The position numbers and the translations under genes are program-made. 64,000 nt of DNA, taken from NCBI GenBank assembly GCA_902802575.1, contig CADCMN010000009.1, forward strand, positions 375-64,374. Reading direction: 5' to 3'. This stretch comes from an uncultured Eubacteriales bacterium (lineage in GTDB: Bacteria; Bacillota; Clostridia; Christensenellales; CAG-138). Shown in pieces: positions 12,162 through 64,000 of the stretch. Numbering within the stretch: position 1 is the stretch's first letter; every line of letters begins with the position of its first letter. A model generated the notes under the pieces. The model was not told the DNA's origin, searched no databases, and saw nothing but the letters and a program-made list of their open reading frames with translations.

Positions 12162-14732
12162 TTACTTGGCTACCTTATCGGAGTATCCAAAGAGCAGACC
12201 ATCGGGCAAGGTCCTGAGCTGGCTCCAATCCTTCTTGTTGCCGCCCTTATTCAGGCGCTCTCCCATGAACACCATGCAGGCGGACACGCCGCCGTCCATG
12301 TTATAGGCCTGGACACATCCATAGGATTCCATAAGGTCCGCGAATTGCGCCAGCGTCCATCCTAAGGATTTATGAAGGGCGTCGCTGCGGTACCCGCCCA
12401 CGATCACAATAAAATGACCCGGTTTCACCATGCCTACGCCTACCCGTGGGTTGGTATTGTATATCACCTTATTGCTTTCCAGCGTCTTCTTCGAGGTTTT
12501 TACCCCATCCTGGATCAGAATTGGTCCAAAGGAAATGCAGTTTTCCACGCCGCCTTCCCGGATCAGCTGAGCAGAAGAGATGTTGTTCTTGGCAACCAGC
12601 TCAATGGACAGGGTCTCGGGATGCCAGATCATCAGATCTCCCTTCTTGGTGTCCTGATAGACCCATCCGTCCCGGATCAACACACCCTTTTTATCCTTGT
12701 CCATATGGATGATATTATCGCCGGTGATCATCAATACCGCCCGATAGCGCTTGGCTATGCCCATGGCGCTGTCCTTGTCGGTGCCGGAGCGCTTTTCATG
12801 ACCGAAGCCGGCCCTGAACTCATCCGCTCTCATATGGATATCCGCCACATAGTAGGGATACTCCACCTTATCCGTCTTGCCGGTATATCGGTTGATCTCA
12901 ATGGACAACGTCTCGTTTTTATAGATCCATTTGCCATTGTCCGGATCCTTTTCCACCACTTCCGCGCCATCCGTATACACCCCAATATCCGGATCGGGGG
13001 TGGCCGTAGGCGCTATGGTAGGCACGGCCGTGGGCGTCGCCGTAGGTTTCGGCGTGGGAACCGGGGTCGGCTCCGCCGTGGGCGCCGCTGTGGGCTCTAA
13101 AGTAGGTTCCGGCGTGAAGGTGGGCGCCTCCGTCCGGGCCGCCGCCGCTTCAATGGCGATCATTCCGTCGAAATGCTCCGCCGCTGCGGCCTGCCGCTCG
13201 TTCAAGGAAGCTGCCCGATACATGCCGAAGAAGATCACCAAACCGGCGAAAACCGGCACCAATATTCCCACGATCACGGGTAGCCGCACATTCATCACTC
13301 TCTTGAGAACGACCATGGCCGTGAACAGGATCGCCGCCACAATAAGGGACAGCACAATGGGCGTCATCACCGTCTTCGTGTCCGCCAGCCGGGGCATAGG
13401 CGTGGGCACGGGAGTTGAAGGGGCTTCTGTCATTCGGGCGACAGCGGGCGCCTGGGTCGGCACGGCCGTTGGCGTCGGCGTAGGTTCTTCCGTCGGTTCC
13501 GGAGTAGGTTCTGCCGTGGACTCGACGGTGGGTTCCGCCGTTGGCGTCGCCGTAGGCGATTCCTCAGGCTCCGCGGTGGGCTCTGCCGCAGGCTCCGGCG
13601 TTTTTAAGGAGGTGTAGCTGATGTTGGTCAGCATATTGCCTTCCTTGTAGCCGCTCCCATTGGCAAAGTGCAGGATATAGGTATCATCTCCGTAGGGCGT
13701 ATAATGGAACGTGCGCATGGAGACATACCCTTCCTTAAGCAGGGCGGCCGCCTGATCGTAGCCGTCGGAAAAATCAAACTTCTGCCCCTTACTGTCGCCC
13801 TTTTCCGCAACAAGATAGATCTTTTTCAGCCAGGATTGATTTTTGATTTTTTTATACACGTAGTCGCCGGTCACCACTTTATACGCGGCCTCCGACTCGG
13901 ACATCAAGGGAAACTGCCTGTTCTTGCCGTGCGTCACGATGACGGAGGGACAGCAGCTTTCAAGAACGTTCAGCAGCTTCTTGGACACCTCTCCGTTTTT
14001 CTCCAGGGTGCTTTTGAGCACGGTGCTGTCCAACGATCGTATACCCGCCGTGTCTAAAAAGATCGGCTCGTTTCGCATGCCCAGCTTCCACAATGTACGA
14101 AGACATTCCTCCTGCCGGTTGCGATTGTAAGGATTGATATACACTACCTGCACAGGCACGCCCATATTGATCAGGGAGGGGAGAAGCCCTCCAAAGCAGG
14201 CCAGTTCGTCTCCCGGATAACCGGTTATCAGCATGACAGCCGGCTTCTTCAAGGGCGCTTCAAACCGTGGCAGATCATCGGACAGCTCTCCGGCGGTATA
14301 CGCGCCGAGCTCGCTGACGGAACACGCTTTCTGAAACGTCAGCGTATAGCCGCAAACGCCTGGTTGAGATACGTCTATATAATCATCCAGCCGCGCCGGC
14401 GTCCACTCCTCGTTGGCTATCGTTTTTCCCTCTTTATCCGTCCAGGCAATGCTGACCTTGGAGGGCATGCTCTGCCAGGCGATAAAAGCGCAGCCGATCT
14501 CCGTGCCGCAGAATACGGATACTTTCTCTCCGTCGGCATAGGAAACGCGAGTGTTGTACATGCCGTCCGTCAAACGAGACGCATACGCGCCGTGTTTTTC
14601 ATCCGCAACGGTCAGCGCCTCTCTGAGATCCACCGCTTCTTTCTCATGAACGGCAGAAGAAAATACGGTATTGGCCGTAAGAATCAATACCGTTAAAAGC
14701 AGTATGCAGCTGATGCGCAGAGCTTTTTTCAT
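12162..14732 (-). CDS. Membrane-anchored surface protein. Domain order: signal peptide, beta-rich domain, degenerate PIG-L/LmbE-like domain, Pro/Thr linker, 2 TM, Pro/Thr linker, phosphodiester glycosidase (NAGPA/DUF2233-like) domain
   Basis: The ATG at 14732 (MKKALRISCILLLTVLILTA) is preferred over the track's TTG at 14762. The C-terminus (RAVLMITGDN...SFGPILIQDG...NPRVGVGMVKPGHFIVIV...AYNMDGGVSACMVF) matches the NAGPA-type phosphodiester glycosidase family. The protein is a paralog of 59782-62307. Confidence 0.7.
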   Translation of the reverse strand: MKKALRISCILLLTVLILTANTVFSSAVHEKEAVDLREALTVADEKHGAYASRLTDGMYNTRVSYADGEKVSVFCGTEIGCAFIAWQSMPSKVSIAWTDKEGKTIANEEWTPARLDDYIDVSQPGVCGYTLTFQKACSVSELGAYTAGELSDDLPRFEAPLKKPAVMLITGYPGDELACFGGLLPSLINMGVPVQVVYINPYNRNRQEECLRTLWKLGMRNEPIFLDTAGIRSLDSTVLKSTLEKNGEVSKKLLNVLESCCPSVIVTHGKNRQFPLMSESEAAYKVVTGDYVYKKIKNQSWLKKIYLVAEKGDSKGQKFDFSDGYDQAAALLKEGYVSMRTFHYTPYGDDTYILHFANGSGYKEGNMLTNISYTSLKTPEPAAEPTAEPEESPTATPTAEPTVESTAEPTPEPTEEPTPTPTAVPTQAPAVARMTEAPSTPVPTPMPRLADTKTVMTPIVLSLIVAAILFTAMVVLKRVMNVRLPVIVGILVPVFAGLVIFFGMYRAASLNERQAAAAEHFDGMIAIEAAAARTEAPTFTPEPTLEPTAAPTAEPTPVPTPKPTATPTAVPTIAPTATPDPDIGVYTDGAEVVEKDPDNGKWIYKNETLSIEINRYTGKTDKVEYPYYVADIHMRADEFRAGFGHEKRSGTDKDSAMGIAKRYRAVLMITGDNIIHMDKDKKGVLIRDGWVYQDTKKGDLMIWHPETLSIELVAKNNISSAQLIREGGVENCISFGPILIQDGVKTSKKTLESNKVIYNTNPRVGVGMVKPGHFIVIVGGYRSDALHKSLGWTLAQFADLMESYGCVQAYNMDGGVSACMVFMGERLNKGGNKKDWSQLRTLPDGLLFGYSDKVAK

Positions 14733-14736
14733 GATG

Positions 14737-15834
14737 TTAGAAAATCCGCATAGGAACGACAAGATAGAAATAGTCGTCGCTGTTCACCGGACGGATCACG
14801 CAGGGATTGATGGGGCTGTTGCACTCCAGATATACCTTGTCTTCCTCCACATTTTTGAGCACATTCATGACAAACTTGGGATTGAAAGCGATGCTCAGCC
14901 CGTCGCCCATGACCTGAGCGCTGAGCTCGTCCTCCACCTTGCCCACCACGCTCTCCGCTTTGACGGTCATATTGTCTGAGCCGATCAGGAAAAGAACGCT
15001 GTTATTGCCGTCCCGGGAAACCAGCTGAGCCCGATCCACGCTCTCCATCAGCGCATCCCGATCCACCAGGACCCGCGTCTTGCAGGATTTGGGAAGGATC
15101 CTCTTATAGTCGATATAATTGCTGTCGATGAGACGGGAGATCAGGACGGTCGCGCCCATATCCGCCTTCATATGGGTGCGGGAGAAGGTCAAGGACGCGG
15201 CGCCTTCCCCTTCCTCCAGCATACGGCCAATCTCGGTGACCGTTTTGCCGGGCACCACCACTCGCTTTTGGGGCGCTTCCTTCTCGATGGTCATGGTGTT
15301 TTTTGCAAACTGGAAGGAATCGGTGGCCACCATGGACAAGGTTTTGCCCTCGCTCTCCAGCAACACGCCGGCCAAAGCCGGATGAGCGTCGTCCAGCGCC
15401 ACGGCAAAGGTTGTGTGCTCGATGATCTTCCTGCCTTTCTCCCGATCGAAGGAGATGGTGAAGGTGTCGTCGCCATCAAAGGTCATCTGAGGAAACTCAT
15501 CATACTCCATGCATTGAAGCTGATTTACGGTTCGACCGCAGCGGATGGTCAGCGTCTGGCCGTCCATGGAGAAAAAGACGTTGCCGTCGGGAAGTTTGCG
15601 CACAATGTCGGAAAAGATGCGTCCCTTGATGACGCATTCGCCGGATTCCTCCACAATGGCTGAAAGACGGTATTCCTTCTGCAGCGTAAGATCGGAGCAG
15701 CGCAGCAGAATGCCTTCTTCATCCGCTACCAGATGGATCCCTTCCAACACGGGCATGGCGGAGCGAACGGGCAACGCTTTGCCGACAGACAGAACACCAT
15801 TTTTTAAAATGTCAGAATGTACACTAAATCTCAT
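14737..15834 (-). CDS. dnaN: DNA polymerase III beta sliding clamp
   Basis: 365 aa beginning MRFSVHSDILKNGVLSVGKALPVRSAMPVLEGIHL. It lies immediately downstream of dnaA/oriC. Confidence 0.92.
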   Translation of the reverse strand: MRFSVHSDILKNGVLSVGKALPVRSAMPVLEGIHLVADEEGILLRCSDLTLQKEYRLSAIVEESGECVIKGRIFSDIVRKLPDGNVFFSMDGQTLTIRCGRTVNQLQCMEYDEFPQMTFDGDDTFTISFDREKGRKIIEHTTFAVALDDAHPALAGVLLESEGKTLSMVATDSFQFAKNTMTIEKEAPQKRVVVPGKTVTEIGRMLEEGEGAASLTFSRTHMKADMGATVLISRLIDSNYIDYKRILPKSCKTRVLVDRDALMESVDRAQLVSRDGNNSVLFLIGSDNMTVKAESVVGKVEDELSAQVMGDGLSIAFNPKFVMNVLKNVEEDKVYLECNSPINPCVIRPVNSDDYFYLVVPMRIF

Positions 15835-37917: not shown

Positions 37918-38376
37918 GGGTTTCTTTTGCCGCTCTTGCTCCTCAGCAAAGAGGGGAAAAGCTCACCCGGAACCAATAATATCGCCTCCTGCCTGGCAAC
38001 GCTCGGGATGCTATCCCGCAGGGGCGATCCGCGAATCGCCCGAAAAGGGCCATAGCGCGAAACGGTTTTGTAAACCAATATATATACCCCATTTGTGCTT
38101 TTCTATTTGGGCGACTTTTTCCTTTGCTGGGGGCAAACCATAGTCGAAAGCATCGCGCAGCTTGCTTTCTGCTTGTTTTGCCCGTGCTGCGTCTCGCTGA
38201 ATCCCCCGCTGCGGGCGCTCGGCTTCGCACTCACTGAAAATAAAAAGACGCAAAGAAAACAGGCATATAATACCTTCCTTTATTCGCTATCCATTCGCCA
38301 ACGGTCGCTGAATTTGCACTCTAACCAGTTGGAAAGGGGGATGGTACAATCGAAGCACAGCGAAGGAGGAGGCAAC

Positions 38377-39156
38377 ATGGCAAAGTACAAAGCACTATTG
38401 ATCGATGATAACACCCAGTTCACCGAAAGCGTGAAAGGATATCTGCTGAGCCAGGATCGGTTCAGCGAGGTGGACACGGCCCAGGACGGGCGGGAAGCGC
38501 TGAATAAGCTGCGGGAGAAGACCTACGACGTGATGACCCTGGACCTCATCATGCCCAATGCGGACGGCCTGGCGGTGCTGGAGCAACTCTCGCTCCTGAC
38601 GCTGGATCCGGCTCCGGCGGTGGTGGTGATCTCCGCGTTGAAGAACGAGGCCATGGTCCGCCGCTGCTGCGCGCTGGGCGCTCGATATTATATGGTAAAG
38701 CCGGTGGACCCGGATACCATCAGCAAACGCTTGCTGGAGACGCTGGAAGGAGAGCCGGTGAAAGGGGGCGTCATGCCCTACGCCCCCACCCACCGGTCCT
38801 TCGAAGAGAAGGTCACGGCCATCTTTCTGGTGGCGGGGATCCCGGCCCACATCAAGGGCTATCACTACCTTCGGGAGGGCATCCGCCTGGTGTACAACGA
38901 CCCGGACCTCATCAACCGGATCACCAAGGAGCTGTACCCGGGCATCGCCAAGCGCTTCGACACCTCCCCCAGCAAGGTGGAGCGGGCCATCCGCCACGCC
39001 ATCGAGGTGGCCTGGACCCGGGGCAAGATCGAAAACCTCAACGCCCTCTTCGGCTACAACATCTATGGCAAGAACGACAAGCCGACGAACGGCGAGTTCA
39101 TCGCCCTCGTGGCGGACAAGCTGTTGATGGAGGAGCAGGGGAAAAAGGCGGGGTAA
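38377..39156 (+). CDS. spo0A: Sporulation master response regulator Spo0A
   Basis: The ATG at 38377 follows GAAGGAGGAGG. It has a receiver domain (LLIDDN...DVMTLDLIMPNADG) and the Spo0A-specific C-terminal domain (ITKELYPGIAKRFDTSPSKVERAIRHAIEVAWTRG...KPTNGEFIALVADKL). Confidence 0.93.
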   Translation: MAKYKALLIDDNTQFTESVKGYLLSQDRFSEVDTAQDGREALNKLREKTYDVMTLDLIMPNADGLAVLEQLSLLTLDPAPAVVVISALKNEAMVRRCCALGARYYMVKPVDPDTISKRLLETLEGEPVKGGVMPYAPTHRSFEEKVTAIFLVAGIPAHIKGYHYLREGIRLVYNDPDLINRITKELYPGIAKRFDTSPSKVERAIRHAIEVAWTRGKIENLNALFGYNIYGKNDKPTNGEFIALVADKLLMEEQGKKAG

Positions 39157-54345: not shown

Positions 54346-55598
54346 ATCTGCCCCAAGCCTATTTGGATCGAATGAGAACCCAGCTGGGCGAGACTTTCCC
54401 GGCCTATTTGGCCGCCATGGACGAGCCGGAGAAACGGGCGGCCCGCAGCAACGGGCTTAAAACGACGCCGGAAGCCCTCTCTGTCCTGCGGCCTGATTTT
54501 ATCGGCGCGGGCGGCGAAGGCTTTCTGCTCCCGCCCGCGTTCGCGCCCGGGAAGGACCCCCTGCATGCGGCGGGGGCGTATTATGTGCAGGAGCTTTCCG
54601 CCCAGGCGCCCGTGGCGCTCTTTAGGCTGACGCCGACCATGGCGGTATTGGATCTGTGCGCCGCCCCGGGAGGCAAATCCGCCCAACTGGCGGCCAAGGT
54701 GCCGGAGGGCGTGCTGTTCTCCAACGAGATCGTTCCCCATCGGGCCAACGTGCTGCTGGGCAACCTGGAGCGCATGGGGGCGAAGAACGCCGTGGTCACG
54801 TCCATGGATCCGGAGAAGCTGGCGTCTCTCGCCGGTCCGGTCTTCGACGCCGTACTGGTGGACGCGCCGTGCGCCGGGGAGGGCATGTTTCGCAAGGACG
54901 CTACGGCTATCGCCGAATGGTCTTTGGAGCATGTGGCGGCCTGCGCCCGGCGGCAGCGGGCCATCCTTGCCTCGGCTCAAAAGGCGGTCAAGGCGGGGGG
55001 CCAGCTGGTCTATTCCACCTGTTCCTTCTCCCCCGCGGAGAACGAGGAGAACGTGCGCTGGTTCCTGTCGGAATTTTCGGACTTCGAACTCATGGAGGAG
55101 GTTCGCTTCTACCCGCACACCTCTTTGGGAGAGGGGCAATATGCCGCCAAGCTGCGCCGCCGGGGCCCAGCTCAGGAAAGGACATATCTCCCGCCCAAAA
55201 GCGACAGAGCGCCTCTGGCGGAAGGGTTTTTGAGGGAGGAAACGATCGGTCTTTCGGGCGCCATCCGTGGGCTGCCCGACGGGCGGGTGCTGCTGCTGCC
55301 GCCCCTTCCCTGCGGCCTTGACGGTTTCAGGCTCCTGCGGGCCGGTCTCCTTTTGGGCGAGGCGGTGAAGGGCCGGTTCGTGCCCGCTCACGCCTTGGCA
55401 ATGGCGGCAGGCTGCCCTCTGCGCCGGCGCCTGGAGCTGTCGGAGGACGACGCTCGACGCTATCTTCGCGGCGAGACCCTGCCCGCGGATTTCTCGGGCT
55501 GGTGCGCCGTGACGTATCAGGGCCTGGCGCTGGGACTGGGCAAGGGCGCGGGCGGCATATTGAAAAATCATCTGCCCAAGGGGCTAAGGATCAATTAG
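54342..55598 (+). CDS. RsmB/RsmF (NOL1/NOP2/Sun) family rRNA cytosine-C5 methyltransferase
   Basis: 418 aa with DLCAAPGGKSAQLA, LVDAPCAGEGMFRKD and LVYSTCSFSPAENE. It has an ATGA overlap with addA. Confidence 0.8.
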   Translation: MNLPQAYLDRMRTQLGETFPAYLAAMDEPEKRAARSNGLKTTPEALSVLRPDFIGAGGEGFLLPPAFAPGKDPLHAAGAYYVQELSAQAPVALFRLTPTMAVLDLCAAPGGKSAQLAAKVPEGVLFSNEIVPHRANVLLGNLERMGAKNAVVTSMDPEKLASLAGPVFDAVLVDAPCAGEGMFRKDATAIAEWSLEHVAACARRQRAILASAQKAVKAGGQLVYSTCSFSPAENEENVRWFLSEFSDFELMEEVRFYPHTSLGEGQYAAKLRRRGPAQERTYLPPKSDRAPLAEGFLREETIGLSGAIRGLPDGRVLLLPPLPCGLDGFRLLRAGLLLGEAVKGRFVPAHALAMAAGCPLRRRLELSEDDARRYLRGETLPADFSGWCAVTYQGLALGLGKGAGGILKNHLPKGLRIN

Positions 55599-55643
55599 AG
55601 GCGCAGGCCGCCGCTTTTTTCAGGAGAATAAGCGAGGTCGCTT

Positions 55644-56804
55644 TCAACACTTCCGCTTCAAGAATTCAAACAGAGTCTGATACTTGCGCACGCAGCGGAG
55701 CTTTTGCGCCGTGACGGCATAATCCTCCTCGGCGGTGGAGAAGACCATGCCCTGGCGCTGGATGAGGCCGATGCCGCGCAGGTCCTTCAGGGGGAAGGTC
55801 ATATCGCCGATGGTCAGCCGGTCCCGGTAGAGGGCCATGGGCCCGGTGGTCAGGGGCGTGAGACGGTGATCGTCCTCCTTCCGGTTCAAGGTCTGGCCCT
55901 CGTCCGAGAAGGCGGCTTCCTCTTCCAGGGTCTCCGCCAGCTGTTCCATCTCTCCGGTCTGCCATTTGTCCCAGGCAAGGGGCGTTTCAAAGGGCAGGTC
56001 CCGGCCTCGGAAGAAGCCGTATTCGTCCAGGGTCATGGAAAGCCCGCAGTCGCAGAAGAACCGGTCCCCCCGGCTGCGGAGGGTGTCGATCCTGTGGCAC
56101 TTGGGGCACAGATACAGGGCGGTTTCCAGCGTCTCGGCCAGGGCTTTCCCCTTGTAAGGTACGGGCTCTCGGGCCTGGGTCTCGTAGGCGTTTTCGTACA
56201 GATCCCGGGTGAGAAGGGCCAGCACCTCGTCCTCGCTCATCCTTTTCAGGTCTTCCGGCGGATACACCCCCACAGGCGCGCCGGTCATGCGGCCTTTGCG
56301 CCGATGGGTGCTCCAGCGAGGCGTGGAGAGATACCCGCCCGTGAGCCGATAGGTGATGAGGGTGCTCCTGGACAGCTTCACCAGCTTGGCGGTGGCTGGG
56401 GCGATGGGCAGGGTCTCCCCGGTGAAGGTCCGATTTCCTTCGGCGAACATGCACACGTTTCGCCCTTTTCTGAGCGTTCGCAGGATCTGCAGGGCTGCCT
56501 CCGCGTCGGTGGTGCCTTTGACGCGTTGGATGACGGAGGCGTAGCGGGTGACGATCTTGGACAGGAAGCCCATGCGCATCACATTTTCGCCGGCCACATA
56601 GTACATGTGCTCGGGGAAGCTAAGCCCCACCAGGATGGGATCGAAATCCGTCACGTGATTGCTCAGAATGAGGCAGGGGCCCTCCGCCTTGGGGCCCAGC
56701 TCAAAGGAATAATTCAGCAGCCCCTTCATCAGCAGCTTCGCCGCCGGATACAGAGCTTTGTACGCCTTTCGTTGACGCTGATATGCCCGTTCATCCTCCG
56801 CCAT
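55644..56804 (-). CDS. Lysophospholipid (PlsC-family) acyltransferase with a C-terminal extension
   Basis: The ATG at 56804 follows CCAGGAGGAAAAGCC. It has a canonical HX4D box (SNHVTDFDP) and FAEGNRTF. The C-terminal half carries a CPKC...CDC zinc-ribbon-like pair. Confidence 0.7.
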   Translation of the reverse strand: MAEDERAYQRQRKAYKALYPAAKLLMKGLLNYSFELGPKAEGPCLILSNHVTDFDPILVGLSFPEHMYYVAGENVMRMGFLSKIVTRYASVIQRVKGTTDAEAALQILRTLRKGRNVCMFAEGNRTFTGETLPIAPATAKLVKLSRSTLITYRLTGGYLSTPRWSTHRRKGRMTGAPVGVYPPEDLKRMSEDEVLALLTRDLYENAYETQAREPVPYKGKALAETLETALYLCPKCHRIDTLRSRGDRFFCDCGLSMTLDEYGFFRGRDLPFETPLAWDKWQTGEMEQLAETLEEEAAFSDEGQTLNRKEDDHRLTPLTTGPMALYRDRLTIGDMTFPLKDLRGIGLIQRQGMVFSTAEEDYAVTAQKLRCVRKYQTLFEFLKRKC

Positions 56805-57023
56805 GGCTTTTCCTCCTGGTTCATTCCTCCCTACTATACCCTCTTTCCGCATCCCTGCGCAAGAGGGAAAAAGAAAAACAGGGACGGCAGGCTGTCGAAA
56901 AAGGCGGCAGACCATTTGCGGCGAATACTATCGGAATGCTGCCGGCAGGTAGAAATGGCGCTGGAAAGCGCCATTTCTTATGAATAAGCGCCGCAAATTA
57001 GCCGGTTTTCCGGCCCGTCGCAT

Positions 57024-57058
57024 AGCACAAAACGAGCCGCCGGTTTCCCGGCGGCTCG
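57024..57058 (-). terminator. Intrinsic terminator following the orphan 3' gene fragment
   Basis: On the minus strand: CGAGCCGCCGG-gaaa-CCGGCGGCTCG followed by TTTTGT. Confidence 0.7.
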
Positions 57059-57073
57059 CGGTGGTTGGTTCGT

Positions 57074-57210
57074 TTATTTCTTCTTCAGGGTGACGATTTT
57101 GGAATCGGCGGTGAGACCCTCTGCGGTAGCCGTGCAACGGAACTGCCAGCCGAAGTTGTCCTCCCCGGCCTGGACGGTGAACTTCGCCTTCGCGCCGCTC
57201 TTTGAGACGA
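57074..57210 (-). pseudogene. Orphan 3' end of a coding sequence (no start codon), probable gene remnant
   Basis: The frame reads ...IVSKSGAKAKFTVQAGEDNFGWQFRCTATAEGLTADSKIVTLKKK*. No ATG, GTG or TTG lies in frame back to the upstream TGA at 57281-57283. It is bracketed by two terminators. Confidence 0.35.
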
Positions 57211-57227
57211 TTGCAAGTAAAAGAAAC

Positions 57228-57255
57228 GGCGAAGGCGGAAAACCGATCCTTCGCC
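57228..57255 (-). terminator. Intrinsic terminator after the alpha/beta hydrolase gene
   Basis: GGCGAAGG-atcggttttccg-CCTTCGCC followed by GTTTCTTTT on the minus strand. Confidence 0.6.
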
Positions 57256-57280
57256 GTTTTGTAAATGCCGTGGGGAGAGG

Positions 57281-58009
57281 TCATTCCCCCAGAATGAGAG
57301 ATTCGATCCTTTTTACCGCCCAGGCGGTCTGTTCCGCCCGGGAGACGGCGGCCAGGCCGTCGCCCTTTTGGGGGCCGTAGTCGCCGAACTGGGCGTGGTT
57401 GCCGCCGGGAAGCTCGAAGGAGAGGGCGGAGGCCGGCAGGTATTGTTCGCCCGCTTTCAGCTTTTTACGGTTCAGGACCCCGTCCTCGCTGCCGTGGAGC
57501 TCCAGCACCGCCAAATGCTCACCGAGAGGCTTGGTGGCGTAGGCGGCCAGCAGGATGAGACCGTCGAGGCCGTCCCCGTGCTCGGCGGCATAGACGGCGG
57601 CCATGGCGCCGCCCAGGGAGTGACCGCCGATATACCAATGCTCATACGCGTATGCGGCCCGGAGATCCGCGGCGGCGTTCACATTCAGAAAGGCCATGTT
57701 GAGGGGCATGCGCACCAAAAAGCAGTCCACCCCGTCCTCCGCCAGGGCCGTGAGCAGGGGCAGATAGGCCGTGGGTTCCACCTTGCCGCCGGGGTAAAAG
57801 ATCAGGGCGTCTTTGGCCCCCGGCCCGTCCAGAAGCCAGCCGGCATCCGTGGTCTTCACCTGCACGGTTTCGCTCCCACGGACGAGAGCTTTCGCTTCAG
57901 GGGAAGCGTGGCAGAAGGTCCCAAAATAGATCCCGCCGACCAGGCACAGCAGGGCAAAAGCAAGGCCCGCCAGAATCAGGGTGCGCTTTATCTTACGGTT
58001 CACGGTCAT
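57281..58009 (-). CDS. Membrane-anchored alpha/beta hydrolase
   Basis: The ATG at 58009 follows GGAGGAA. It has an N-terminal TM segment (TLILAGLAFALLCLVGGIYFG) and the nucleophile elbow GGHSLGG. Confidence 0.7.
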   Translation of the reverse strand: MTVNRKIKRTLILAGLAFALLCLVGGIYFGTFCHASPEAKALVRGSETVQVKTTDAGWLLDGPGAKDALIFYPGGKVEPTAYLPLLTALAEDGVDCFLVRMPLNMAFLNVNAAADLRAAYAYEHWYIGGHSLGGAMAAVYAAEHGDGLDGLILLAAYATKPLGEHLAVLELHGSEDGVLNRKKLKAGEQYLPASALSFELPGGNHAQFGDYGPQKGDGLAAVSRAEQTAWAVKRIESLILGE

Positions 58010-58242
58010 TTCCTCCAAACAGACAGGGCGGCGGCAGATACGGGGACGGCCTGTGGCCTTGCCGCGGCGCAAGCCGCCTGTCGCGGTGGTCCTACTCTAT
58101 CCCCATACGGTCGGAATGTCAAGGGAAAAGGATCGGGGACCTGTCCCTTGGGCCGTCCGCCGCAAATGACAATACGCTCTTGATTCGACAGGGAAAATAC
58201 GGTATACTTTCATACATATTATAGTAGGAGATTGTGCGCTCC

Positions 58243-59769
58243 ATGAACAAAAGACGTCTGTTTCCCTGGATCCTGTGCCTCTCGGCCCTGATGCTTCTAT
58301 GCGGTTTATCGGTCCGGGCGGAGGAAACGGAGCCAGAAGCGGAAGACATCACCAAGGGTTTCACCTTCATCAAGAACAGCTCGGAGACCAGCGCTCTGTA
58401 TTCTCATGACGGAAAGTATCTGTCCTACAACACCTACGGACCCCATGACGTGCTGCTGATCCAGCCCAAGGGCGAACAGACCCTGGGCTCCCTGTACTTT
58501 CGTCTGGGGACCCAGAACGCCCGGATGACGCTGCGGCAGTTTGACCGGCACGGAAAGCTGCTTCAGACCTCCGATCTGGACGCGGACGGGCTTTTCTGTA
58601 TCGTCAAACTGGCGGAGGGATGCAGCCGGATGGAGCTCACCGCCCGGGAGGAGCCCTTCGACCTGTGTGAATTGACCATACTGGGGCCCGGCCGGATCCC
58701 TGACAATATGCCCCAGCCCGAGCCCTCCGTGACGCGAACGGACTTTCTCATCGTCACCACCCATCCCGACGATGAATGGATCTTTTTGGGGGGCGTGTAT
58801 CCCATCTATGCCGCGGAGCGCGGCTATACCGGCACCTTCGCCTATGTGACCACCTCCAAAATGGGGCGAGCCCACGAGGCCATCAACAGCGTTTGGTCCG
58901 CAGGCATGCGCACCCTTCCCTTTTTCCTGGGGTTTCCGGACGTCTCCGGGTCCCAGTCTGCCAGCAAAAAGGCCGCTTTCAAGGCGGAGGAGGTCACGCT
59001 GGCCCTGGTTCGGCTGTACCGAAGGATCAAACCCCTGGTGGTGGTGACCCAGGACCCGGAGTCCGGCGAGTACGGCCACTGGCAGCACATTATCTCCGCC
59101 CGGTCCGCCCTGGAGGCGGCCACCCTGGCTCAGGATCCCACATACGATCCGGAATCGGCGGCGGAGTGGGGCACCTGGACGGTGAAGAAGGTGTATCAGC
59201 ATCTGGCCGAGAACGGCCGTATCCTGCTGGACGTCTACGCTCCTTTGACGGCGTATGACGGTATGACGGCCTTCGAGGTGGCCAAACGAGCCTTCGCCGA
59301 GCATAAGTCCCAGCAGCAGTATTCCTATCGCCCCACCAAGAAAGACCACGGCTTCTACGATATGCGTCGCTTCGGTTTGACCTACACTTCGGTTGGGCCG
59401 GACACGGGCAGCGATATGTTCGAGCATATCGAACACGATGAGTTGGCGGAGGTGATCCTGAACGCCACGCCCACGCCGGAGCCCACGCCGGAACCCACCC
59501 CGACGCCCACGCCCACGCCGGAACCCACGCCCACACCCACGCCGACCCAGGCGCCCACGGAGACGCCGGAGCCCACGCCGACCCAGGCCCCCACCGCGGC
59601 GCCGACTTTGACGACGGCGCCAACGGACATGCCGGCACCCATCGAGACCGCGGCGGATCAGGCGGCTGGCGGCGGCTGGACGGCGGCGGTCATCGTCGGG
59701 GGGCTGTTGCTGCTGGCGGCGGCGCTGAGCTGTGTCCTGGTGCGCAGGATACGGACCCGGCGCAGATAA
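58243..59769 (+). CDS. Secreted, C-terminally anchored PIG-L/LmbE-family deacetylase with intact catalytic motifs
   Basis: Signal peptide, beta-rich N-domain, [16 protein letters not shown] plus a downstream HWQH (HxxH), a Pro/Thr linker ([32 protein letters not shown]...) and a C-terminal TM plus RRIRTRRR. The ATG at 58243 is preferred to the GTG at 58234. Confidence 0.75.
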
Positions 59770-59781
59770 GGAACGAACGAT

Positions 59782-62307
59782 ATGATAAAACGAACGATCA
59801 TTTTTATCCTGCTGCTGGCCATGACGCTGAGCGTCGCGCTCCCGGCAGCGGCGGCGGAAACCTCGTGGGAGCTGCCGTATGAGCTTACCGTGCCCAAGGG
59901 ACGGGAGGCGGCCGCCGACCATCTGAAGGATAACGATTACCGCACGCGGTTCACCTTGGCCCAGGGCCAATCCCTGTCCATCTCCTGGACGGAGGAGGCC
60001 GGCGGGGTGCTGCTGCAGTGGTTCGACGAGAAGGTGTGGTACAACCATACCTGCTATGCCACGATCCGTTTCTTTGACGGGAAAGGACGGCGGGTGAAGG
60101 AGATGTCCAACGTCCCGCTGTCCTATCGCATGTTCCTGCCGGCGCAGGGCGTTCAGCGAATAGATATCCTCTGTCCGAATCGCCGGGACGCCACCATCAG
60201 CCTGTGCGAAGTGAAGGTATGCGCGCCCGGCTATGAGCCGCCCAACCTGGCCAGGGAAGAGAAAGTGGATCTGATGCTGGTCCTGTCCGCCGTCAGCGAC
60301 GAGCTGGACATGCTGGGCGGTTTGCTGCCCCTGTATGCGGGAGAGCATGGCATCGAGACGGCGGTGGTGTATGTGGGTCGGGACGACGGCAACCAGGTCC
60401 AGGAGGCTTTTCGGGCCCTGGATGCCATGGGGCTGGACGTGATCCCCCTGTTCCTGCAGCGGGAGGACCATAGGACCTACAATCAAGGCCGGCTTTCCTC
60501 CCTTTGGAAGGAGGCCAAGCTCAAGGACCAGCTGGTGGAGCTGTTCAAAGCCTACCGGCCCAAGGTGGTCGTGACCCTCGATCCTAAGGACACTAAGACG
60601 GCGGCGCGGGCCAGGTATACGGCAACGCTGGTCAGGGACGTGATCGTCAAACTGTCGGGGGCCAAAAAACTGGAGGTGCAGAAGCTCTATCTTCTGTCCC
60701 CGGAGGGGCAGACCGAAGTGGACGGGACCCAGTCTCTGGCGGTCTATGGGGGCCGCGCGGCCGTGGACGTGGCCCGAGAGGCGTACGCCAGCTACCGGTC
60801 GGAGGTCTCCTACCGCACGGTGATCCCGGAAAGCCTCCGCTTCACGCTGGCGTATACCAAGGTGGGGGATGACGAGGCGGCCAACGATCTCTTCGAACAT
60901 TTGAACACGGAGGACCTGATCCGGTATCAGGCGCCTACGCCGGCGCCGACGGCCACGCCTGCGCCGACAGAAGCGCCCACCGCCACGCCCACCGCCACCC
61001 CCACGGCGACGGTTGCGCCGACAGAAGCGCCCACCGCCGCGCCCACGCTTTTGCCCACGGCCACACCGATCGTTGAAGACCCGGGCGAAGAAGCCGGATC
61101 CAAGGCGCCCGCGCCCCGGTGGGGACCGCTTCCCTTGGCCTTGGCCCTGTATGGGGCGGCCGCCGTCCTCGTGGTGATCGGCCTGTGCCTGTTGAAGAAG
61201 AAGCGGTCCATCGCTTTGGTGCTGCTGGCGATAGGGAGCCTGCTGGCGTTTGTGGGGTATGCCCTGGGCAAGCCCCGTCAAGCCGGCGACGATCCCTCCG
61301 CGCAAGCCGCGGCCACGATCGAGGCGGCGCCCGCCCACACGCCAGCGGCCACCTTGATCCCCTCTCCCACCCCGGCCGAGGCCCCTGCCGTCACCGAAAC
61401 GCCTGTCGCCGCGGAGACGCCCCTCGCCTCAGCGGAGCCCACAGAGACGCCGGAAACGGACGATCAGTATTTCCGGCAGCCCGGCGATCCGGCGGAAGTG
61501 GTGATCCAGGATTATGACGCCGGTCACTGGGAATACCGTTCCGACATCCTGTCCGTCATCATCGATCGGTATACCACCCGGGAGAATGATCGTCCCTACT
61601 GCAAGTATATCGCTCACGTGCGCATGCGCCAGATCAACAGCTTCCGCTCCATCGTGACCTCCCGCCATCAGACGGCCAGCGCCAACGAAGCCCCCTGGCG
61701 GCTGGCTCGGAACTATAGGGCGGTCCTGGTCATCACGGGAGACAACATCAACGAAGCGGACGTGGATATGAAGGGGATCCTGATCCGAAACGGCATCCTG
61801 TATGCCGAACGATCGGGAGAAAGCACCATGGTCATCGACGACGATATGACCATGCGCGTCTTCCGCCCCGGGGAGATATCCGGCCTGGATCTGCTGGACA
61901 GCGGCGTGCTGGATTCCTACAGCTTCGGTCCCATCCTGGTGGAAAACGGACAGGTGAACCCGGACGCCGACAAGCACCGGGTCTTCAAGCCCAACCCCCG
62001 CTGCGGCGTAGGCATGGTGAAGCCGGGCCATTTCGTGGCCATCGTGACGGACGGTCGGGATGAGGCGCGCGCCTATGGATACACCCTCAGCAGCTTTGCT
62101 CAGCTGTTCGTCAACGAAGGGGTGCAGATCGCCTACAATCTGGACGGCGGCAATTCTGCGGGCATGGTGTTCATGGGCGAGCATGTGAACTGGCATTCCG
62201 TGGGGACCCAGCGGACCTGGGCCGACGGATTGGCGTGGGGGTACTCCCAGCTGGTGCCCCAGCCCAAGGATCCCATACATCATAGAGGAGTGGGGACAAA
62301 CTACTGA
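59782..62307 (+). CDS. Membrane-anchored fusion of a degenerate PIG-L-like domain and a phosphodiester glycosidase (NAGPA) domain; paralog of 12162-14732
   Basis: 841 aa. Signal peptide, beta-rich domain, an LmbE-like fold with SAVSDE in place of HPDDE, PT linkers flanking 2 TM segments, and a C-terminal RAVLVITGDN...SFGPILVENG...NPRCGVGMVKPGHFVAIV...AYNLDGGNSAGMVF. Confidence 0.75.
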   Translation: MIKRTIIFILLLAMTLSVALPAAAAETSWELPYELTVPKGREAAADHLKDNDYRTRFTLAQGQSLSISWTEEAGGVLLQWFDEKVWYNHTCYATIRFFDGKGRRVKEMSNVPLSYRMFLPAQGVQRIDILCPNRRDATISLCEVKVCAPGYEPPNLAREEKVDLMLVLSAVSDELDMLGGLLPLYAGEHGIETAVVYVGRDDGNQVQEAFRALDAMGLDVIPLFLQREDHRTYNQGRLSSLWKEAKLKDQLVELFKAYRPKVVVTLDPKDTKTAARARYTATLVRDVIVKLSGAKKLEVQKLYLLSPEGQTEVDGTQSLAVYGGRAAVDVAREAYASYRSEVSYRTVIPESLRFTLAYTKVGDDEAANDLFEHLNTEDLIRYQAPTPAPTATPAPTEAPTATPTATPTATVAPTEAPTAAPTLLPTATPIVEDPGEEAGSKAPAPRWGPLPLALALYGAAAVLVVIGLCLLKKKRSIALVLLAIGSLLAFVGYALGKPRQAGDDPSAQAAATIEAAPAHTPAATLIPSPTPAEAPAVTETPVAAETPLASAEPTETPETDDQYFRQPGDPAEVVIQDYDAGHWEYRSDILSVIIDRYTTRENDRPYCKYIAHVRMRQINSFRSIVTSRHQTASANEAPWRLARNYRAVLVITGDNINEADVDMKGILIRNGILYAERSGESTMVIDDDMTMRVFRPGEISGLDLLDSGVLDSYSFGPILVENGQVNPDADKHRVFKPNPRCGVGMVKPGHFVAIVTDGRDEARAYGYTLSSFAQLFVNEGVQIAYNLDGGNSAGMVFMGEHVNWHSVGTQRTWADGLAWGYSQLVPQPKDPIHHRGVGTNY

Positions 62308-63890
62308 TGAAACGAATGCTTTGGCTATGGCTGATCCTGGCCGTCGTGCTGGGAAACGCGTGCTGCGTTGATTCCCAACAGAAACCGGCTCAATCAGAAT
62401 CGATCCCTCGCACATCGGAACCGGCTGCTCCGACCGCCGCCCCGGCGGCTGCCGCCGCGTCCACGGCTAAACCCACTTCCGAGCCCATCGTGCTGGCCGG
62501 GCAGGCCTATCGCGGGGATGAAACGGCCCTGTCCCTGGTCCTGACGGCGGAGGAAATGCCTCTGCTGGATCGGTTTTCCCGTCTTGAGACGCTGGACCTT
62601 TCCGGCAGCGCCTGCTATGCCCAGATCTTGGCTTATGCACAGGCTCACCCCCAGGTGCGCGTGGTCTACACCGTGGACGTGGAGGGACAGGCCGTTCCCT
62701 CTGATGCGGAGGAACTGACGCTGTCCGCCCTGACGGATCCGGGGCTTCTGACCTATCTGCCCCGGCTGAAATCGGTGACGATGAGCGCCCCCCTGCCCCT
62801 GGCGGAGGCGGAAGCGCTGCATGCGGCCGCCCCCCAGGCCAGCCTTGGCGGCGAGCTGACTTTTGCGGGGTTGACCGTGCCCCTGGACGCGGAGGCCCTG
62901 GATCTGTCGGCGGTAGCCCCTGAGGACGTGGATGACTGCCGGCGGGCCGTGGCCCTGCTGCCGCAGCTGAAGCAGGTGGAGTTGGACCCGGCGGAGGGGG
63001 AGTCCCCCTGGACGCTGGAGGAGGCCGGGTCCCTGGTGGTCCAGTATCCGGACCTTTTGGTGCAGTACACCGCCACGGTCTTTGGGGTAACCTTCTCCTT
63101 GACGGATGAGGTGGTCAGCTTCAACAGGATCGATCTGAAGGATCAGGAGGCGGAGCTGCGGCGCATCCTGCCCTATATGGCCCATGTTGGGCGGCTGGAT
63201 ATGGAATACTGCAACATCCCCGACGAGAGGATGGCAGAACTCAGGAGCGACTTTCCCGCCCCCAAGATCGTCTGGCGGGTGTTCCTCAAGGGCCGGTATC
63301 ACTGCCGGACCGACGCCATCATGATCCGCTTCTCCAACGACTCGGATGGGGAGCGGCTGTATGATAAGGACACCCATCCCCTGATCTATTGCAATGAACT
63401 GAAGTACGTGGACCTGGGCCACGATAAGATCACCGACGCCTACTTCACCGCCTATATGCCGGAGCTGGAGGTGCTCATCCTGGCCGTGGGGGAGATCACC
63501 GACATCTCCGCCCTGAAGAACTGCCCCAAGTTGGAATACTTGGAGATATTTACCGGCCATCTGACAGATATCTCCGTTTTGGCGGAGCTGAAGAATCTGA
63601 AGCATCTTAACATGGCCAACAACAAGATCAGCGATATCACGCCCCTGTTCGAGCTGAATCTGGAACGGCTGTTCCTGTCCCGCAACCCCATTCCCAAGGA
63701 GCAGATCGAGGCTTTCCGGAAGCGCTTCCCCAACTGCGATGTGGATTCCGTTTTGAGCAATCCCACGGGCGGCACCTGGCGCAAACCCGGCGGACGGTAT
63801 ACGCTGCTGCGCAAACAGCTCAGTTACGACAACGTAAGCATCAACACGTATTCCGCTTTCAACCAACCCTGGACGCCTGAAACCCCATGA
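62307..63890 (+). CDS. Secreted leucine-rich-repeat (internalin-like LRR) protein
   Basis: 527 aa with a signal peptide, an Ala/Pro-rich linker and repeated LxxLxLxxNxIxDIxxL units (LKNCPKLEYLEIFTGHLTDISVLAELKNLKHLNMANNKISDITPL...). Its start overlaps the upstream stop (TGATG). Confidence 0.75.
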   Translation: MKRMLWLWLILAVVLGNACCVDSQQKPAQSESIPRTSEPAAPTAAPAAAAASTAKPTSEPIVLAGQAYRGDETALSLVLTAEEMPLLDRFSRLETLDLSGSACYAQILAYAQAHPQVRVVYTVDVEGQAVPSDAEELTLSALTDPGLLTYLPRLKSVTMSAPLPLAEAEALHAAAPQASLGGELTFAGLTVPLDAEALDLSAVAPEDVDDCRRAVALLPQLKQVELDPAEGESPWTLEEAGSLVVQYPDLLVQYTATVFGVTFSLTDEVVSFNRIDLKDQEAELRRILPYMAHVGRLDMEYCNIPDERMAELRSDFPAPKIVWRVFLKGRYHCRTDAIMIRFSNDSDGERLYDKDTHPLIYCNELKYVDLGHDKITDAYFTAYMPELEVLILAVGEITDISALKNCPKLEYLEIFTGHLTDISVLAELKNLKHLNMANNKISDITPLFELNLERLFLSRNPIPKEQIEAFRKRFPNCDVDSVLSNPTGGTWRKPGGRYTLLRKQLSYDNVSINTYSAFNQPWTPETP

Positions 63891-63895
63891 AAAAA

Positions 63896-63925
63896 GCGGC
63901 CATCCCGACGGGATGGCCGCTTTTT
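63896..63925 (+). terminator. Intrinsic terminator after the LRR gene
   Basis: GCGGCCATCCC-gac-GGGATGGCCGC followed by TTTTT. Confidence 0.85.
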
Positions 63926-63937
63926 AAGACTGGTCGC

Positions 63938-64000
63938 TTATCTCTGGGCCCGATGCTTGGCGAAGCAGGCGGAGCAGTAGATGGGCTTGTCGTTCCGGGG
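63938..64000 (-). CDS. 3' end of a CDS cut by the window edge (C-terminal CxxC zinc-ribbon-like tail)
   Basis: The reverse strand reads ...PRNDKPIYCSACFAKHRAQR* with a TAA stop at 63938-63940. Only 20 codons are visible. Confidence 0.35.
   Translation of the reverse strand, partial: PRNDKPIYCSACFAKHRAQR

Follow-up and report, generated by a model that had tools for sequence, protein, structure and literature searches.

A tightly packed gene set for an intact PIG-L/CE14 protein, a degenerate PIG-L-NAGPA fusion, and an LRR lipoprotein, with a possible role at the cell envelope of Clostridia

Three adjacent genes (A, B, and C) encode surface-tethered proteins in a gut or rumen Clostridia genome, and a fourth gene, D, lies apart from them in the same window, i.e., the whole stretch of 64,000 nucleotides that was analyzed. 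The genes and their features are listed in Table 1. As an earlier sequence-only reading of this DNA had described, the A-B-C genes are packed like an operon, with a gap of 12 nt between A and B and a TGATG overlap between B and C. The strong terminator that it had placed at the end of the module was also recovered as a hairpin with an 11-bp GC stem (ΔG, −28.8 kcal/mol; z = −8.1), and 0 of 200 shuffled sequences folded equally well; a consensus scan for terminators made no call for this hairpin. The promoter-like site of A lies in intergenic sequence, divergent from a promoter-like site on the minus strand for an α/β-hydrolase gene. The length of 511 aa previously given for A holds for the GTG start but not for the ATG start, which is the one chosen by other gene callers. 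A, B, and C may form a single operon between the promoter-like site and the terminator, and this arrangement is part of the explanation that is tentatively favored below. The module is flanked by genes for an α/β hydrolase, an acyltransferase, RsmF, and AddAB. Neither glycopolymer-synthesis genes nor sugar-uptake or catabolic genes were found beside it in the window, and its surroundings are core housekeeping genes.

Table 1. Genes and sequence features of the A-B-C module and of gene D (positions in the window)
Feature	Position	Strand	Description
Promoter-like site upstream of A	58180..58208	+	TTGATT, 17 nt, TATACT; consensus match only
Gene A	58243..59769	+	508 aa from ATG; 511 aa from GTG 58234; signal peptide, CBM32-like β-sandwich ~aa 37-147, PIG-L/CE14 ~aa 165-385, Pro/Thr linker, C-terminal TM helix aa 478-500, Arg-rich tail
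THPDDE motif of A	58759..58776	+	Presumed zinc-ligand His, general-base Asp, and zinc-ligand Asp
GHWQH (HxxH) motif of A	59074..59088	+	Pairs with GHPDH of MshB in HMMER alignment
Gene B	59782..62307	+	841 aa; signal peptide, CBM32-like domain aa 30-147, degenerate PIG-L fold aa 160-375, Pro/Thr linker, two-TM hairpin aa 449-496, second linker, NAGPA aa 570-825
TM hairpin of B	61126..61269	+	Helices 449-470 and 475-496 around KKKRS loop; secondary structure from model
NAGPA (phosphodiester glycosidase) domain of B	61489..62256	+	Pfam PF09992, 82.8 bits
NAGPA loop D788-G-G-N-S792 of B	62143..62157	+	
Gene C	62307..63890	+	527 aa; lipoprotein-type signal peptide (…LGNAC), Pro/Ala/Thr linker, leucine-rich repeats
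Intrinsic terminator	63891..63925	+	A-run, stem GCGGCCATCCC, loop GAC, stem GGGATGGCCGC, TTTTT
Gene D	12162..14732	-	856 aa; distant paralog of B with the same layout; GYPGDE, no HxxH, DGGVS

Protein A was matched by the PIG-L Pfam profile PF02585 at 35.8 bits (cut-off, 28.2), and the canonical motifs that had been ascribed to the 511-aa protein were both found in it. The roles given for the THPDDE residues in Table 1 were assigned after MshB, for which we take them to be established. Across 60 homologues, H174, P175, D176, and D177 of the first motif and G278, H279, Q281, and H282 of the second are invariant, and A has the full set of zinc and catalytic residues (the His and the two Asp of H-P-D-D, plus HxxH). 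The structure model of A (mean pLDDT, 86.9) has an LmbE-like Rossmann-type fold, with Foldseek matches to 1q7t and 1q74 (E 1e-10) as well as 2ixd, 8bgo, and 4xm1; the matched proteins include MshB (E 1e-10), BC1534, diacetylchitobiose deacetylases, and CBM32 modules. The N-terminal domains of A and B matched galactose-binding-like β-sandwiches (4a44, 2v72, 2j22, 3lei, and APC10) with a Foldseek probability of 1.0 and TMt values of 0.5 to 0.64. Sequence identity to these structural matches was 11 to 16%, and no Pfam profile matched the domain. The ~120-aa β-rich domain of the sequence-only reading is present, and its description can be refined from the models to a CBM32-like (F5/8-type-C-like) domain, a putative sugar binder. 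A is predicted to consist of this CBM32-like module and an intact zinc-type PIG-L/CE14 de-N-acetylase.

In the large proteins B and D, the first motif is altered. The zinc His and the base Asp are replaced by Ala and Ser, respectively, in SAVSDE of B and by Tyr and Gly in GYPGDE of D, and HxxH is missing from the aligned position in both; alignments to A confirmed what had been noted about these motifs from the letters of the DNA. The PIG-L profile scored 25.4 bits in B and 16.5 bits in D, both under the same cut-off of 28.2, so that the profile check proposed earlier (PF02585 and PF09992) returned PIG-L of A and NAGPA of B and D above the cut-offs and PIG-L of B and D below. The PIG-L homology of B and D is nevertheless clear because of their paralogy to A (31% identity and E 1e-28 for the N-terminus of B; E 3e-15 for D) and, for B, because of the fold. 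In the structure model of B (mean pLDDT, 82.0), Foldseek found MshB and other CE14 enzymes, NAGPA catalytic domains, and CBM32/F5/8-type-C modules. B and D share 30% identity across their full length (E 5e-80). The catalytic His is absent from 39 of 39 aligned family members of the degenerate PIG-L domain, and no His or Cys is invariant in the core of the domain in this alignment. The sole nearly invariant His, H373, belongs to a C-terminal DLFEH motif that is also present in A. Without the metal-ligand His, the general-base Asp, and HxxH, B cannot be a canonical deacetylase. The altered motif YPG[DE]E is retained across ~45 D orthologues, and dN was 0.38 for the dead PIG-L domain, 0.24 for the active PIG-L domain, 0.23 for NAGPA, and 0.54 to 0.63 for the CBM-like domains. 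The conserved motif and the dN of 0.38 indicate that the dead domain is maintained and is not decaying.

The NAGPA domain that had been placed after a two-TM hairpin in both large proteins was found by Pfam and, for B, in the structure model. By the positive-inside rule, the KKKRS loop of the hairpin would be cytoplasmic, with both globular parts of B outside the cell. The PF09992 score of D was 84.5 bits (cut-off, 25), comparable to that of B, and the model of B contains the NAGPA catalytic-domain fold (Foldseek 6pki, 6pku, and 3ohg; E ~1e-12; TMt 0.60 to 0.71). TGD, KG, NPR, PGH, N-x-DGG-x-S, and R811 are invariant in the family, as are the residues aligned to the catalytic D286 and S290. 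R811 is located 23 residues past the Asp; HMMER places it opposite an Arg of 6ozd, and it may match the phosphate-binding R316 of the human enzyme, as far as sequence alignment goes. The NAGPA-fold domain of B is well conserved: its catalytic loop retains the essential Asp and Ser, and the invariant Arg further downstream is also present. The DGGGS loop is reported to be strictly invariant and essential in NAGPA (PMC13474241). The loop is DGGNS in B and DGGVS in D, with the Asp, the first two Gly, and the Ser kept. Since the DGGxS loop departs from DGGGS, specificity of B and D for GlcNAc-1-P cannot be assumed.

Protein C was matched by the LRR_4 Pfam profile at 61.7 bits and also contains LRR_8 repeats. 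It shares 31% identity (E 2e-39) with the LRR half of P0043, a PIG-L-LRR fusion in which an active PIG-L, a TM hairpin, and a C-like LRR are contained in a single protein. The sequence-only reading had called C a secreted LRR protein; the LRR assignment stands, but C is not simply secreted, since the clear canonical lipoboxes of its homologues identify it as a lipoprotein.

Co-occurrence of the three gene types was seen among 79 related loci. The sequence-only reading had proposed a check of neighborhood conservation across Oscillospiraceae, but the relatives are labelled Clostridia or Christensenellales, with only a few Oscillospiraceae. H[PC]DDE and GHxxH are kept in 27 of 29 stand-alone PIG-L ORFs, and the catalytic site is degenerate in 81 of 88 PIG-L+NAGPA fusions. 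That only the stand-alone copy keeps the motifs is correct for this window but does not hold as a rule: three of the 88 fusions keep the full site and four keep the metal ligands, and one locus (L057) has the inverted arrangement, in which an active PIG-L-NAGPA fusion is followed by a stand-alone dead PIG-L and then an LRR gene. An intact PIG-L gene lies directly upstream on the same strand, with gaps of −61 to 78 nt, in 21 of the 62 degenerate fusions with enough upstream flank and in none of the seven intact or near-intact fusions. This pairing of an A-like gene with a degenerate fusion is present in two lineages that share only ~30% identity. LRR genes often adjoin PIG-L/NAGPA genes, and at three loci (L054, L055, and L065) a near-intact fusion is followed by an LRR gene and then an active PIG-L gene. 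Active CE14, dead CE14, NAGPA, and LRR recur as neighbors and are shuffled between polypeptides in the relatives.

The best explanation, which we hold tentatively and at somewhat short of even probability, is that A, B, and C work jointly on an envelope glycopolymer that contains GlcNAc and belongs to the cell itself. The proteins would be held by flexible Pro/Thr-rich tethers, through the C-terminal TM helix in A, the central TM hairpin in B, and the N-terminal lipid anchor in C. The likeliest target would be a sugar-1-phosphate linkage (GlcNAc-1-P type), similar to those by which LCP enzymes join wall polymers to MurNAc. Cleavage of the sugar-phosphate glycosidic bond would fall to the NAGPA domains of B and of the housekeeping paralog D, and the dead CE14 and CBM module of B would bind or position the substrate, or pair with A. 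A would de-N-acetylate the same sugar. By analogy with PplD, a CE4 enzyme that de-N-acetylates a GlcNAc-1-P linkage unit (PMC8807736), this step would make the linkage more or less labile or alter how NAGPA recognizes it; C would serve as a scaffold. It is plausible that the wall polymers acted on are those of the cell itself, linked through GlcNAc-1-phosphate. D starts 4 nt past the stop codon of dnaN and is followed by a hairpin with a T-run and then by the rsmH-ftsL-PBP-murE cluster, and this position between dnaN and the division/cell-wall (dcw) cluster is kept in three orthologous contigs with 57 to 62% identity. LCP, GT2-GtrA, Wzy_C, GT14, and PGA_cap genes adjoin these genes in other lineages. 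The own-wall model, a form of which the sequence-only reading had put forward as the uncovering of phosphodiester-linked GlcNAc, gains indirect support from the position of D and from the LCP, GT2-GtrA, and Wzy_C neighbors. The absence of adjacent sugar-uptake and catabolic genes in the window also speaks for it, and the absence of glycopolymer-synthesis genes beside the A-B-C module speaks against it. The LCP and glycosyltransferase genes in question are from other lineages, and their proximity may in part be due to synteny passed down by descent.

A further point against the own-envelope model is that enzymes for the harvest of foreign glycans, too, typically have CBM32-type modules and expanded sets of paralogs. 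Surface-tethered CBM32/CE14/NAGPA enzymes could strip GlcNAc or GlcN from foreign gut or rumen phosphoglycans or GlcNAc-rich glycans for nutrition, e.g., from teichoic acids of other bacteria or from fungal, protozoal, or host glycans; we regard this as unlikely, though by no means negligible. Glycan degraders typically have such a modular order of CBM32-like domain, esterase, linker, and anchor, all relatives come from gut, rumen, or digester metagenomes, and several genomes contain more than one copy (three loci in the MAG assembly CAXXUL01; two each in the chromosomes OY771363 and OY762962). Each subfamily has its own residue x in DGGxS, a pattern suggesting that specificity has diversified. 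In Christensenellaceae, an MFS transporter gene lies directly upstream of the A'-B' pair; however, sugar ABC/PTS transporters, regulators, and GlcNAc-catabolic genes were not found adjacent in any of the three synteny groups. Furthermore, D is fixed in its place across orthologues, and the A-B pair is in stable core-genome synteny (gyrA…metK, abH…mutY), unlike accessory polysaccharide-utilization loci. The TM or lipid tether would also confine the enzymes to the cell's own wall zone.

It is improbable that the CE14-like and NAGPA-like domains of B and D are both binding modules, with B and D as sensors, scaffolds, or adhesins and A as the sole enzyme. The CE14 site is clearly dead, and a scaffold role fits the association with an LRR protein. 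The third Gly of the NAGPA loop is missing, and DGGGS occurs in only 1 of 88 related fusions; G289A, i.e., Ala at this position, is reported to inactivate human NAGPA (PMC13474241). However, G289 contacts phosphate through its backbone amide in the human enzyme (PMC13474241), so that a side chain need not abolish the contact. NAGPA is also the slowest-evolving part of B (dN, 0.23), and the residues aligned to D286 and S290 and the Arg that may correspond to R316 are invariant family-wide, together with TGD, NPR, and PGH. The residue aligned to the phosphate-binding T260 is Cys or Val. The loop, the effect of G289A, and the Cys or Val at this position suggest that the substrate may not be GlcNAc-1-P or that the activity may differ, and they thereby count against the favored own-envelope model as well.

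We similarly give little credence to A and B being uncoupled tandem paralogs, in which B arose by duplication of A followed by NAGPA fusion, each protein works on its own, and the dead domain is a leftover of evolution. A and the N-terminus of B are paralogous. No A gene adjoins B in the close relatives L011-L013 and L018, and 24 of the 53 degenerate fusions whose flanks are complete lack A-like and LRR neighbors alike; these two observations also count against the favored model. By contrast, the pairing persists where both partners have diverged to ~30% identity, the altered motif is conserved inside orthologue groups, and the same modules are re-fused in varied combinations. Dead domains are no nearer to the neighboring A (28% identity) than to each other (31%), indicating that the duplication is ancient and that adjacency has been retained. 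Interbacterial antagonism, with NAGPA proteins attacking sugar-phosphate linkages in the walls of competitors, is very improbable: roles in conflict have been proposed in a preprint for TelC+NAGPA proteins, whose ligand-binding domains diversify (10.1101/2025.01.14.632903), and B/D relatives show paralog diversity too, but the proteins are membrane-tethered and not released, their genes have stable housekeeping positions with no adjacent immunity-like, secretion-system, or toxin genes, and the orthologues are well conserved and not hypervariable.

Joint action on a glycopolymer of the cell's own envelope is the reading that we prefer. In its most specific form, which is speculative and rather unlikely, the set of CE14 protein, dead-CE14-NAGPA protein, and LRR lipoprotein, plus D, would be the missing counterpart of the LCP ligases, detaching or editing wall glycopolymers at the sugar-1-phosphate-MurNAc linkage during growth, where the pseudo-deacetylase would read, and the active deacetylase would set, the acetylation of the linkage sugar. 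No published function for the A/B architecture was found in the literature.

The architecture can be compared with several known systems. A has the fold of MshB, BshB, BC1534, and diacetylchitobiose deacetylase (PIG-L/LmbE; CAZy CE14) with Foldseek E values of 1e-10 to 1e-8, and its H-P-D-D and HxxH site is complete, as in MshB-type enzymes. However, NCBIfam equivalog scores were far under the cut-offs (e.g., 46 versus 224 for MshB). The CE14 members that have been characterized reside in the cytoplasm, comprise a single domain, and function in thiol biosynthesis, antibiotic biosynthesis, or chitin catabolism, whereas A is exported, has an N-terminal CBM32-like module, and is tethered to the membrane by way of a Pro/Thr linker. 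In B and D, the catalytic residues of MshB-type CE14 enzymes are gone, and the fold alone is shared with these enzymes, as seen in the model of B. Vertebrate NAGPA (the mannose-6-phosphate uncovering enzyme) and bacterial DUF2233 (BACOVA_00430, PDB 3ohg) share the fold of the B domain (TMt 0.6 to 0.7), with PF09992 scores above 80 bits in B and D, and the catalytic-loop Asp and Ser are conserved, as is a downstream Arg that may correspond to R316. NAGPA is held near the membrane on a stalk or linker (PMC13474241), as in B and D. The B/D family differs in its DGG[N/V/S/A/L]S loop, compared with DGGGS, and at the T260 position; its NAGPA domains are fused to a dead CE14 domain and a TM hairpin and have no EGF stalk or propeptide. 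NAGPA is likewise a module of large Bacillota surface proteins with binding domains in ShfP-family calcineurin-like+NAGPA proteins (PMC11488536) and TelC+NAGPA proteins (10.1101/2025.01.14.632903), but the partner domains are different, and those reports mention no PIG-L or dead PIG-L domain, TM hairpin, or LRR lipoprotein neighbor. C resembles internalin-type LRR surface proteins in its LRR_4/LRR_8 repeats, and among NCBIfam models it is most similar to internalin-like LRR regions. Its scores are far under the internalin/NEAT-LRR cut-offs (54.4 versus 1275, 44.1 versus 1050, and 42.1 versus 1600), with generic LRR repeats alone matching, and unlike internalins it lacks LPXTG, GW, and NEAT modules and has the anchor of a lipoprotein. 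PplD, a CE4 enzyme of streptococcal rhamnopolysaccharides, is extracytoplasmic and membrane-associated and acts on the linkage GlcNAc that is phosphodiester-joined to MurNAc (PMC8807736). It differs from A in having a CE4 and not a CE14 fold and in having no partner NAGPA or pseudo-enzyme. We claim no homology between the two; PplD sets a functional precedent for what A is proposed to do, by analogy and not by membership.

Pfam searches placed a PIG-L domain (CE14 in CAZy) in the product of gene A at 35.8 bits, over the cut-off, an LRR_4 match in that of gene C at 61.7 bits, and NAGPA domains in the products of gene B and of D, its distant paralog, at 82.8 and 84.5 bits, with PIG-L scores for the latter two of 25.4 bits (sub-threshold) and 16.5 bits. 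The assignment of A, B, and D to these families, made at first from the sequence alone, was upheld. By BLASTP, the N-terminal ~380 residues of B and D were paralogous to A (E 1e-28 and 3e-15, respectively), and B and D aligned end to end with 30% identity (E 5e-80). AlphaFold models built on family alignments were confident except in linkers, with pLDDT values of 86.9 (A) and 82.0 (B). In Foldseek searches of the PDB, the CE14 part matched MshB, BC1534, and diacetylchitobiose deacetylases (E 1e-10 for A and 3e-7 for B), and the C-terminal domain of B matched vertebrate NAGPA and BACOVA_00430 (E ~1e-12, TMt 0.6-0.7). The N-terminal domain described earlier as β-rich was present in A and B and could be refined to a CBM32-like β-sandwich, as Foldseek with the models retrieved CBM32, fucolectin, F5/8-type-C, and APC10 β-sandwiches. 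The domain-level reading of A, B, C, and D is secure; the mechanism is one that we infer.

In B, two helices (residues 449-470 and 475-496) flank a KKKRS loop, and in the model, both globular halves would therefore face outward. The C-terminus of A is a transmembrane (TM) helix with an Arg-rich tail, and Pro/Thr/Ala-rich tethers are common to A, B, and C. C had been taken for a secreted LRR protein; the repeats and the extracytoplasmic location stand, but C is a lipoprotein rather than freely secreted, because its homologues have canonical lipoboxes and Lgt is encoded in the window. Some B orthologues of ~690-725 aa (P0019-P0026 and L010:8935-11112) lack the TM hairpin, which is thus dispensable there; in P0021, the sole hairpin-less one read entire, only a Pro/Thr linker lies between the degenerate CE14 and NAGPA domains. 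Several homologues, P0007, P0014, P0049, and P0189 among them, carry the precomputed Pfam accession PF27998.

Coordinates of features in the window
Feature	Position	Strand	Basis or description
A	58243 (ATG)-59769	+	ORF call
B	59782-62307	+	ORF, 841 aa
DGGNS loop of B	62143-62157		
C	62307-63890	+	ORF, 527 aa
D	12162-14732	-	distant paralog ORF
Promoter-like site	58180-58208		consensus scan
rsmH ORF	10837-12069	-	mechanical ORF, 410 aa
dnaA	16153-17469	-	
Serpin gene	20057-21352	+	Pfam Serpin, 256 bits
spo0A	38095-39156	+	Spo0A_C and receiver domain

All three plus-strand ORFs were confirmed and are as tightly packed as the sequence-only reading had described, with a 12-nt gap between A and B and a TGATG overlap between B and C. 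A could also start from an open GTG at 58234; independent gene calls on matching contigs chose the ATG, giving 508 aa. Directly 3′ of C lies an 11-bp GC-rich hairpin followed by a T-run (folding ΔG -28.8 kcal/mol, z -8.1); the consensus terminator scan gave no call at this site, but sequence reading and folding bore out the strong terminator proposed to end the module. No regulatory RNA was found by an Rfam scan of positions 55000-64000. Among the 13 contigs read, three independent metagenome contigs (L080-L082) that match the window at 56-64 kb were shown with C, and all three stop within ~300 nt past its terminator, which suggests a repeat or assembly-breaking element just past the window end.

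We next compared the PIG-L sites. A has THPDDE and GHWQH motifs, and its residues H174, D176, D177, H279, and H282 were invariant in 60 homologues and aligned to the active site of MshB, in which the equivalent residues are the zinc ligands, the general base, and the HxxH pair. The aligned stretch reads SAVSDE in B and GYPGDE in D, neither with an HxxH, exactly as first noticed. No alternative ligands were found: the CE14-like core of 39 B/D-family sequences contains not one invariant His or Cys, so that a substitute metal site finds no support and a restored one was rejected. The sole nearly invariant His, H373, lies in a C-terminal DLFEH motif shared with A. ORFs were then called in all related loci, and their products were classified by BLASTP and motif columns. 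The H[PC]DDE and GHxxH motifs were kept in 27 of the 29 stand-alone PIG-L proteins. Among 88 PIG-L-NAGPA fusions, 81 were degenerate, four kept the ligands with loss of the base Asp (HxGDE), and three were fully intact, so that the claim that only the stand-alone copy keeps its motifs holds in the window but is a tendency rather than a strict pattern among the relatives.

In pairs among L001-L018, dN was 0.38 for the degenerate domain, 0.23-0.24 for the active domains, and 0.54-0.63 for the CBM-like domain, values that serve as a relative measure only because dS was saturated (~0.8-1.3). Comparison with the nearest contigs, L080-L082, was uninformative for dN/dS (0-6 codon differences). Judged from sequence, the degenerate domain is being kept and is not decaying. 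A recent duplication of A into B was ruled out, since degenerate domains are no nearer to the neighboring A than to other degenerate lineages; the duplication is therefore old.

The NAGPA-domain invariants were TGD, KG, NPR, PGH, N-x-DGG-x-S, and a downstream Arg. The DGGGS loop has been called strictly invariant, with a G289A variant inactive, in a 2026 study (PMC13474241). However, the loop is DGGNS in B and DGGVS in D, unlike that of any solved NAGPA/DUF2233 structure, and DGGGS occurred in only one of the 88 related fusions. Val was found in all D-type orthologues listed with a DGGxS loop, Leu in another group, and Ser, Ala, or Asn in the B group, and across the clade the variants (V, L, S/A/N, D, and R) were fixed by subfamily. 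Given this fixation, the variable residue resembles a position that sets specificity more than a sign of decay. These results show that, in bacteria, the supposedly invariant NAGPA loop does depart from DGGGS.

Scanning one genome per species yielded 364 relatives; the best 79 loci were all from uncultured Clostridia/Christensenellales, a few labelled Oscillospiraceae, of gut, rumen, and digester origin. When 1.84 billion representative proteins were searched with a profile, 1,422 reached E ≤ 1e-30, with full-length fusions making up roughly 60 of the top 150, and no informative name was found on any family member among the homologue matches. The neighborhood check supported the proposed co-occurrence in relatives. 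An intact stand-alone PIG-L gene lay directly upstream on the same strand in 21 of 62 degenerate fusions with enough upstream flank and in none of the seven intact or near-intact fusions. This pairing was seen in the window's own group (A identity 55-75%) and also in a Christensenellaceae group whose two partners share only ~30% identity with those of the window. Of 71 degenerate fusions with sufficient downstream flank, 14 had an LRR gene directly downstream, and of 53 fully flanked on either side, 17 had one adjacent in either orientation. The modules were also shuffled: P0043 carries an active PIG-L fused, across a TM hairpin, to an LRR part resembling C (31% identity, E 2e-39), locus L057 has the order active PIG-L-NAGPA, stand-alone degenerate PIG-L, LRR, and loci L054, L055, and L065 have the order near-intact fusion, LRR, active PIG-L. 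Of all the evidence that the PIG-L, degenerate PIG-L, NAGPA, and LRR modules work together, this shuffling is the strongest.

Three synteny groups were distinguished. The first, the window type, has the order abH (an α/β-hydrolase gene), RCC1+NAGPA gene, A, B, (C), mutY. Its extra gene (~660-940 aa) is divergent and directly upstream of A, or of B if there is no A, in the majority of close relatives (L001-L004, L006, L008, and L010-L013); the copy at L001:4885-7470 (minus strand) has RCC1 repeats and a NAGPA domain, the loop is DGGRS in 10 of 10 copies, and the gene is absent from the window. The second has gyrA, MFS, A', B' (the Christensenellaceae counterparts of A and B), metK, small NAGPA, GT2/GtrA, LCP, and the third has fusion, GT14, Wzy_C, PGA_cap, LRR, fusion. 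In the second and third groups, the family lies beside wall-glycopolymer assembly genes, including those of LCP ligases.

The window itself consists of housekeeping DNA near the origin (dnaA, dnaN, the dcw cluster, parAB, gidAB, pth, mfd, spo0A, addAB, and rsmF), and no LCP or TagO-type gene was found in the rest of it. D begins 4 nt past the dnaN stop and is followed by its own terminator-like hairpin with a T-run and then by rsmH-ftsL-PBP-murE, without mraZ (12162-15834, minus strand). The order dnaA-dnaN-D-rsmH-ftsL-PBP-murE was kept in three orthologous contigs (L083-L085) at 57-62% identity. The rsmH ORF is over-extended, with the MraW domain starting from residue 78; an internal ATG near 11864 has a -10-like TATAAT and an AGGAGG in front of it. 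The replication origin lies within the window, with a GC-skew sign change at ~16-18 kb, and GC content is 52-55% at ~12-22 kb versus 60-66% elsewhere. The serpin gene adjoins signal peptidase and Lgt genes, and the presence of Spo0A places the organism in, or among descendants of, endospore-forming Bacillota.

To our knowledge, the removal or turnover of LCP-attached peptidoglycan polymers in Gram-positive bacteria is poorly understood, and the envelopes of Christensenellales-type gut and rumen Clostridia are little studied. We tentatively favor a set that acts at a sugar-1-phosphate linkage in a glycopolymer of the cell's own envelope, a reading we consider possible at somewhat under even odds. 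B and D would supply the glycosidase, the degenerate CE14+CBM unit would serve as a binding or partner module, the deacetylase A would set the acetylation state, and C may act as a scaffold. The main rival, foraging on foreign glycans, is unlikely: it would fit the CBM32-like modules, the paralog expansion, and the adjacent MFS transporter, but it accords poorly with the stable core-genome positions, the membrane tethering, and the lack of adjacent catabolic or uptake genes. Purely non-catalytic B and D, uncoupled paralogs, and interbacterial antagonism are lesser alternatives. A NAGPA-type enzyme has the right chemistry to cut exactly the sugar-1-phosphate bond of LCP-attached polymers, and the fusion family offers a concrete candidate for their removal; the case would grow more interesting if the NAGPA domains do cut wall-polymer linkages. 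The family is in addition a clear example of a surface enzyme whose partner is its own pseudo-enzyme.

In the literature, we found no description of the degenerate CE14-NAGPA fusion or of an intact CE14 paired with it, nor of the LRR lipoprotein partner or the paralog next to dnaN. The GlcNAc-1-P-MurNAc phosphodiester is the product of LCP ligases, and bacteria do deacetylate the linkage GlcNAc, altering the chemistry of the bond, as shown for streptococcal PplD (PMC8807736). PplD is a CE4 enzyme, unlike A (CE14), and the likeness is one of analogy only. The component families are known.
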